A stretch of 64,000 nucleotides of DNA from Alphaproteobacteria bacterium (GTDB taxonomy: Bacteria > Pseudomonadota > Alphaproteobacteria > RF32 > CAG-239): assembly GCA_900769705.1 (NCBI GenBank), contig CAAGHP010000020.1, positions 94,974 to 158,973 of the forward strand, written 5' to 3'. Each line of letters starts with the position of its first letter. Within the stretch, counting starts at the first letter, position 1. A model generated the notes under the pieces. The model was not told where the DNA came from and made no database searches. It worked only from the letters and a program-made list of their open reading frames with translations. Below, piece by piece: positions 26,863 to 27,006 of the stretch. Position numbers and translations under genes: made by a program.

Positions 26863-27006
26863 CTATTTGCTGATGGAAATTTCATCAATTTCTTCCATTT
26901 CCGAAGCAGAATTGCTGCAACCGCAGCCGCAACTGCCTTTAGATACGGTAGGCTGAGCTTTTTGAGACGGCTTTTTGTTATCATATGATTTTGATTCTTT
27001 TTTCAT
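26863..27006 (-). CDS. Unannotated 47-aa ORF, MKKESKSYDNKKPSQKAQPTVSKGSCGCGCSNSASEMEEIDEISISK, immediately upstream of hsp20 and translationally coupled to it
   Basis: Hand translation. Strong SD (aaaaaaGGAGATaaaa ATG). The stop codon lies 10 nt before the hsp20 ATG. Below the 60-aa cutoff of the ORF track. Confidence 0.35.
   Translation of the reverse strand: MKKESKSYDNKKPSQKAQPTVSKGSCGCGCSNSASEMEEIDEISISK

Follow-up and report, generated by a model that had tools for sequence, protein, structure and literature searches.

A conserved small protein gene upstream of hsp20 in gut and rumen Alphaproteobacteria and the tentative assignment of its product as a partner of Hsp20

Bacterial small heat-shock proteins are generally viewed as self-contained holdases whose control is exerted through oligomer dynamics, transcription, and RNA thermometers. 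Thermometers of the ROSE type hide the Shine-Dalgarno sequence and the AUG of a heat-shock gene in a hairpin at the 3' end of its leader. A pair of genes is found in the ibpA-ibpB operon of Enterobacteria, which is served by a heat-shock promoter and whose two products are thought to cooperate on aggregates. The C-x-C motif is well known for binding metals through its thiolates and for redox chemistry; it is present in the redox-switch zinc centre of Hsp33, which has the form C-x-C...C-x-x-C, and in metallothioneins, the SmtA/BmtA type of which is Cys-rich, with about 9 Cys plus His residues. Partner proteins of human small heat-shock proteins, as in a study of the Hsp27 groove, carry I-x-I/V motifs with which they compete for binding between beta4 and beta8; the partner motifs dock in this beta4/beta8 groove in competition with the C-terminal motif of the chaperone and thereby tune oligomerisation and client binding (PMC6212398). 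In mycobacteria, short ORFs with polycysteine tracts attenuate the expression of downstream genes (Canestrari et al., bioRxiv 10.1101/834739).

Here we describe a locus contained in 64,000 nucleotides of alphaproteobacterial DNA (contig CAAGHP010000020.1; hereafter the window), in which hsp20 is directly preceded on the same strand by a 47-codon ORF. The locus is like ROSE thermometers in that a regulatory element would stand before an alphaproteobacterial hsp20 in a heat-shock context; unlike there, no Rfam match is found, and the space before hsp20 is occupied by an ORF under selection that leaves a gap of only 9 nt. Both products of ibpAB are alpha-crystallin-domain proteins, whereas the partner encoded here is a 47-aa peptide that is predicted to be disordered and does not have that domain. 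With Hsp33, the small protein shares a C-x-C motif in the context of a stress chaperone, and two copies of it could together give four thiolates; it differs from Hsp33 in having neither homology to it nor a second C-x-x-C motif, and metal binding is hypothetical. BAG3 and the other I-P-V or I-x-I/V partners of human Hsp27/HSPB8 (PMC6212398) are largely disordered and carry a short hydrophobic-x-hydrophobic motif, as does the small protein, whose I-S-I lies in a region that is predicted to be flexible. Unlike the small protein, BAG3 is eukaryotic, large, and multidomain, and there is no sequence relationship between the two; moreover, the I-S-I motif stands in an acidic context, with a charge opposite to that of the basic Hsp20 motif, and binding in the present case is hypothetical.

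The small ORF occupies positions 26863..27006 of the minus strand and extends from an ATG (27006..27004) to a TAG stop codon (26865..26863). Its translation, MKKESKSYDNKKPSQKAQPTVSKGSCGCGCSNSASEMEEIDEISISK, reproduces exactly the ORF coordinates and the peptide given in a first-pass annotation of this DNA. The Shine-Dalgarno sequence GGAGAT (27011..27016, minus strand) is strong, as had been proposed; the spacing of 6 nt reported for it fits the GGAG core (27016..27013), while GGAGAT itself ends 4 nt from the ATG. In the transcript from the inferred start, this Shine-Dalgarno sequence is predicted to be unpaired (p=0.97). An alternative in-frame ATG further upstream (27033) is without a ribosome-binding site and is not kept among relatives. 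Residues 26-30 form a C-G-C-G-C core (codons 26917..26931, minus strand), of which the C-x-C is a near-invariant feature of the family, and the acidic tail EMEEIDEISISK (codons 26866..26901, minus strand) carries the hydrophobic-x-hydrophobic motif I-S-I. The core DNA contains 2.5 copies of TGCGGY; the imperfect tandem repeat noted in the first-pass annotation is thus present, but it merely results from the coding of C-G-C-G-C, and Tandem Repeats Finder does not call it.

The second cistron, hsp20 (26365..26853, minus strand), encodes a protein of 162 aa that matches PF00011 with E=1.6e-17, above the curated cut-off. Both hallmarks of Hsp20 proteins were found in it, the alpha-crystallin domain and a C-terminal I-x-I/V motif (KQKFKKIAIN), the latter forming part of a basic C-terminus with the sequence EKQKFKKIAIN. 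Throughout the lineage, this end of Hsp20 conforms to the basic and almost invariant motif EKQKFKKI-x-(I/V) (26365-26430 in the window, and related loci), beyond which the Hsp20 proteins of one clade possess 10-20 extra residues. At the junction of the two genes (26854..26865, minus strand), the TAG of the small ORF overlaps a weak hsp20 Shine-Dalgarno sequence, AGGT, which is followed by a 9-nt spacer, and translational coupling could occur there. The near-adjacency of the two genes had been correctly recognized, but the gap between them measures 9 nt (26862..26854) instead of the 10 nt initially reported. At all loci the gap is 0-20 nt, with the stop codon of the small ORF mostly overlapping TAGGAG or TAAGGAG; the hsp20 Shine-Dalgarno sequence is weak in the window and strong in most relatives. 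The small ORF and hsp20 share one reading frame in the window (26368-27006), which is a matter of chance, since the frames differ among relatives.

Using the Hsp20 protein as the query against bacterial contigs representing one genome per species, we obtained 63 loci, all of them from uncultured gut or rumen Alphaproteobacteria, with a few records bearing obviously wrong bin names. A similarly laid-out small ORF is located directly 5' of hsp20 in 60 of these loci; two of the remaining three are truncated, and one is genuinely without the small ORF. Across this set, in which Hsp20 identity falls to about 52%, the small ORFs have a common layout: the N-terminus is basic, a linker rich in Ser follows, the core reads C-x-C or CCC, and the tail is in most cases acidic, with hydrophobic residues at alternating positions. 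A GGAG(A/G) sequence stands 6-9 nt before the ATG at 60 of 60 loci. In the clade of the window, pS amounts to 0.51 and pN to 0.08 (pN/pS 0.16), two further clades show pN/pS values of 0.41-0.45, and the differences per codon position in the small ORF are distributed 18:9:66. Judged by these patterns, the small ORF is a real gene under purifying selection, far beyond what chance would produce. The coding-like pattern upstream of hsp20 that the first-pass annotation had asked for in relatives is therefore found, with the frame and the Cys motif both conserved, and its prediction of a genuine small protein gene that is co-expressed with hsp20 agrees with the conserved pairing and with a spacing compatible with coupling. 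Its description of the ORF as unannotated does not hold for public data: gene calling has picked up orthologues in NCBI metagenome-assembled genomes under the name 'hypothetical protein', and 851 blocks of an assembly collection, including many from human gut samples, list the exact 47-aa product as a called gene.

The family to which the small protein belongs is undescribed and lineage-restricted. A profile search of 5.8 billion proteins returned 126 homologous clusters, nearly all of them 43-55 aa in length and a few up to 96 aa, which contain no Pfam domain and have 'hypothetical protein' as their sole name. An exhaustive HMM search of 1.84 billion representatives gave 23 matches at E up to 0.001, all of them small, and in no case was the family a domain inside a larger protein. 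The small protein has no match in Pfam or NCBIfam at E up to 1 and nothing significant among PDB sequences, and our literature searches found no description of the family. It does not correspond to a bacterial metallothionein of the SmtA/BmtA type, having 3 Cys and no Pfam or NCBIfam match at E up to 1. Nor did it match a family of RiPP precursors (SCIFF, lanthipeptide, thiazole/oxazole); hsp20 is the only conserved neighbour, and there is no conserved maturase gene.

Among the 177 distinct family sequences, 171 carry C-x-C or CCC. The core takes the form GCCCGSK in the largest group, GCGCGC in the window, and GCHCGSK, GCRCGSK, or NCDCSS elsewhere; in the alignment, C26, C28, and G29 are invariant, and across the family two Cys are near-invariant. 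Three consecutive Cys codons are present in 105 of the 177 members, the Cys residues are non-consecutive in many others (CGC, CHC, CRC, CDC), and L061 has a single Cys. An acidic tail is found in 161 members, a hydrophobic-x-hydrophobic motif within the last 16 residues in 155, and a basic MK... start in 164; the constraint spans the whole peptide and includes an N-terminal MKxSQSKFS or MKKESKSYD motif as well as the tail. The conserved C-x-C, by its resemblance to known motifs, suggests that the small protein may be responsive to metals or to the redox state, as the first-pass annotation had proposed; its idea of a small thiol peptide made together with Hsp20 is compatible with all of our results. 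In one locus (L007), a His-rich N-terminus (MHMVDGEHGHCHGHAHDHEHCHEHTHDHSHE) is fused to the GCGCGC core and gave the product a metal-binding appearance; we rejected this variant, which is probably the product of a chimeric assembly. The stretch of ~495 nt at the start of L007 lies at a contig end and has promoters in the style TTGATA...TATAAT as well as the start of a foreign divergent gene, and the point of fusion falls into a GGCTGC repeat. Three database homologues (P0020, P0109, P0038) end unusually, in a hydrophobic tail, an extension by read-through, or a poly-Lys stretch; these C-termini look like frameshifts or sequencing errors of short contigs and not like true variants.

AlphaFold2 modelling of the peptide alone, with an alignment of 56 sequences, gave a pLDDT of 60, a pTM of 0.13, and no secondary structure; the model predicts that the 47-aa product is disordered. 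In composition, the small protein is hydrophilic (GRAVY -1.10), with 6.4% Gly and 21% Ser. Its Lys-rich N-terminal half has a charge of +5 and its tail one of -4, while in Hsp20 the alpha-crystallin domain has a charge of -6 and the C-terminal extension one of +4. The small protein is hence a charge dipole, and the charge arrangement of Hsp20 is the reverse.

The small ORF was never seen apart from hsp20, neither in the 60 loci nor in six family members that we located by their exact peptide alone. These look-ups are independent of hsp20, and each of the six has a same-strand Hsp20 gene 8-20 nt downstream. The outer upstream neighbour varies: it is accA in the largest clade, and in the window and its relatives a PRK07208-type FAD oxidoreductase is encoded there. 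Since the outer neighbours change while the pairing persists, the conserved unit, as far as gene order reveals it, is a two-gene module composed of the small ORF and hsp20. The upstream gene of the window (27105-28670, minus strand) encodes an FAD/NAD-binding oxidoreductase that matches PRK07208.1-5 of NCBIfam, a family named 'hypothetical protein', at 768 bits, and no terminator was found in the window between this gene and the small ORF. A further gene (28807-29211, plus strand), which keeps its place beside the oxidoreductase gene in close relatives, encodes a 134-aa protein that combines double zinc-ribbon motifs (a PF12773 hit that narrowly misses the cut-off) with a C-terminal half of hydrophobic character. 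The hsp20 terminator is directly followed by a gene (21148-26289, minus strand) for a Ser/Thr/Asn/Gly-rich protein of 1713 aa that contains a BigA-like domain and has an autotransporter beta-domain at its C-terminus (PF03797, E=1.7e-26); an autotransporter gene follows hsp20 also in relatives belonging to the clade of the window.

Upstream of the small ORF, the window contains the motif CTTTGA-N15-TTTATCT (27087..27060, minus strand), made up of a -35-like box CTTTGA (27082..27087) that resembles that of RpoH-type promoters and a -10-like box TTTATCT (27060..27066; compare CCTATCT of RpoH2) that is situated inside the arm of an inverted repeat (27059-27071). In Sinorhizobium meliloti, the RpoH1/RpoH2 consensus reads CTTGAA/CTTGCC-N15-16-CCTATAT/CCTATCT (PMC4843759). 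The boxes of the window agree with this consensus, which is that of another organism, at 4/6 positions (-35) and 5/7 positions (-10). Across the loci, the boxes take the form CTT(T/A)(G/A)A, 16 nt, TTAT(C/T)T, with a fixed spacing and a variable spacer sequence. The strict pattern CTT[GAT][AG]A-N16-[CT]TATNT occurs in 36 of 60 loci compared with 1.2% of control windows, and most of the loci without it are one mismatch off. In the accA clade, the boxes are found just past a terminator-like hairpin that follows accA; this position supports their being a promoter, because the hairpin leaves no other room for one. A scan for sigma-70 promoters gave no match upstream of the small ORF, and the rest of the window contains no second site with the motif and no classical heat-shock gene for comparison. 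By their sequence, the boxes look like those of a heat-shock promoter in a low-GC form, and the RpoH-type promoter whose presence had been put forward as a check has a candidate counterpart in this motif.

A stem-loop, GUAACA-GCAAAA-UGUUAU (27034..27051, minus strand), begins about 8 nt past the -10 box. Most loci have a hairpin a few nt past this box, with stems of unrelated sequence such as GUGAAAAC/GUUUUUGC and UAAGGGCA/UGCCCUUA; its folding has a mean z of -1.8, and z lies below -2 in 45% of the loci. Here it is the structure that is conserved and not the sequence (27034-27051 in the window, with equivalents in L002-L063), and the operon transcript probably carries this hairpin as a 5'-terminal stem-loop. 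An intrinsic-terminator-like hairpin with a T-run follows hsp20 (26322..26357, minus strand; hairpin 26357..26332). The predicted order of the operon is thus a heat-shock-type promoter, the 5' hairpin, the small protein gene, hsp20, and the terminator.

Two further pairings were noted in this region. Of the 13 positions in the segment that holds the -10 box (27059-27071), 12 are complementary to the start region of the small ORF (27003-27015). Comparable complementarity to the start region is significant in about 41% of the loci, and we rejected a thermometer acting through this pairing: its occurrence is patchy, and the fixed spacing of the boxes argues for a promoter. If the boxes are a promoter, the -10 segment would be absent from the heat-shock transcript, and the pairing may then concern only read-through transcripts from the upstream gene, with silencing as a possible outcome. 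The second pairing is a 13-nt inverted repeat with 92% complementarity between the Cys-Gly codons of the small ORF (26918-26930) and codons 10-14 of hsp20 (26812-26824). A helix of 10-13 bp can form in this way in six members of the clade of the window (the window itself, L002, L004, L005, L006, and L009), with one apparently compensatory change from GGC/AGC in the window to GGU/AAC in L004 and L006. The helix is absent from the other clades, does not cover the hsp20 ribosome-binding site, and may be a coincidence of two hexamer repeats.

For the role of the small protein, the reading that we favour, tentatively and with somewhat less than even confidence, is that of a trans-acting partner of Hsp20; it is based on genomic context and on features of the two sequences. 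Ribosomes that end translation of the small ORF probably feed that of hsp20, because the stop codon is 9 nt away and overlaps the weak hsp20 ribosome-binding site, and both proteins would be made together as heat-shock transcription rises. The acidic tail could then pair with the basic C-terminal extension of Hsp20 or, alternatively, could compete with this extension for the beta4/beta8 groove of the alpha-crystallin domain; either event would tune the oligomer state of Hsp20 or the access of its clients. The basic N-terminal half could contact the acidic alpha-crystallin domain, and the C-x-C thiols would supply a redox- or metal-dependent switch, for instance by dimerising two peptides. We infer a joint function with Hsp20 from the exclusive adjacency of the genes, which persists while all other neighbours change, from the opposed charges, from the register that E-I-D-E-I-S-I of the tail shares with K-F-K-K-I-A-I of Hsp20 (the same spacing of hydrophobic residues with opposite charge), and from a co-variation between the tail and the length of Hsp20.

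The co-variation concerns seven loci in which a Ser/Lys-rich tail replaces the acidic one. Their Hsp20 proteins are 171-181 aa long, as opposed to 151-166 aa elsewhere, and are 10-20 residues longer at the C-terminus. This is weak evidence, since it reflects essentially one phylogenetic event, and two loci (L033 and L053) combine an atypical tail with a short Hsp20. In a further case of a non-standard tail (P0251), the following gene encodes 178 aa, of which only the N-terminal part aligns with Hsp20. Other observations count against a partner of Hsp20. The chaperone has an I-x-I motif of its own, which leaves no obvious need for another; binding to the groove is uncertain, because an acidic tail would have to mimic a basic Hsp20 motif; the acidic tail is missing in one clade and a few single members; only two Cys are near-invariant, with only one in L061; and charge complementarity is a generic property.

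The main rival to a partner of Hsp20 is an independent stress protein, small and hydrophilic, that would buffer thiols or metals or act as a protectant and would share the promoter with hsp20 without contacting its product; we regard it as rather unlikely. The predicted disorder and strong hydrophilicity of the product and the conservation of the C-x-C or CCC core would suit such a protein, and co-transcription alone requires no physical contact. The adjacency to hsp20 is, however, tighter and more exclusive than a shared regulon requires, two to three Cys without a Pfam or NCBIfam match are not metallothionein-like, and the only variant with a metal-binding appearance, L007, is probably a chimera.

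It is less probable still, and to our minds distinctly unlikely, that the small ORF acts in cis, with its translation loading ribosomes at the weak hsp20 start or with pausing at the Cys codons sensing cysteine or charged tRNA-Cys, and that the peptide is a by-product. The window offers several features that would fit such a role: the overlap of the stop codon with the hsp20 Shine-Dalgarno sequence, a gap that stays within 0-20 nt, the weakness of AGGT, and the 10-13 bp complementarity of the Cys-Gly codons to hsp20 codons 10-14 in its clade. The run of three Cys codons in 105 of 177 members recalls the mycobacterial polycysteine ORFs, which are likewise short first cistrons that carry a Cys tract and directly precede the gene they regulate (Canestrari et al., bioRxiv 10.1101/834739). 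[quoted passage not shown] The amino-acid constraint on the whole peptide would be needless for an attenuator, and the Cys residues are interrupted in many members, including C-G-C-G-C of the window, and reduced to one in L061. In addition, the long-range helix is limited to one clade, and most relatives have a strong hsp20 Shine-Dalgarno sequence of their own. The leader peptide that the first-pass annotation had offered as an alternative is weakened by the whole-peptide constraint, by the lack of a structure that sequesters the hsp20 ribosome-binding site, and by the identity of the downstream gene.

That the small ORF is no gene at all but a chance frame in a regulatory hsp20 leader, be it a thermometer of the ROSE type or another, is extremely improbable: the full intergenic region would, if transcribed, fold unusually well (z=-4.39), with its -10-like segment paired to the Shine-Dalgarno sequence and AUG of the small ORF, yet this pairing involves the start of the small ORF and not that of hsp20, no ROSE or other thermometer family of Rfam matches 26300-27300 at E up to 10, the Shine-Dalgarno sequence and ATG are kept in 60 of 60 loci, and the substitutions (pN/pS 0.16) fall mostly on third codon positions. 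The ROSE-type element once considered in place of the ORF is likewise contradicted by the conserved frame and by the location of hsp20 only 9 nt past an ORF under selection.

The comparative data alone could validate a gene of fewer than 50 codons, and the pair belongs to an uncultured lineage that is common in humans, hundreds of gut assemblies having a record of the exact peptide. Were the small ORF a mere coupled upstream ORF or its product a generic hydrophilic stress protein, the finding would be an ordinary one. A bolder version of the partnership with Hsp20, which we consider unlikely, would make the peptide an accessory subunit devoted to a small heat-shock protein, the first such subunit in bacteria: a coupled and disordered 'clip' whose acidic tail engages Hsp20 and whose C-x-C provides a thiol switch, so that assembly or activity of Hsp20 would respond to oxidation or metals. 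If this were true, an order of gut Alphaproteobacteria would possess a two-component, thiol-switched holdase, and a partner protein that is locked to hsp20 throughout a lineage would add a new layer to the control of small heat-shock proteins.
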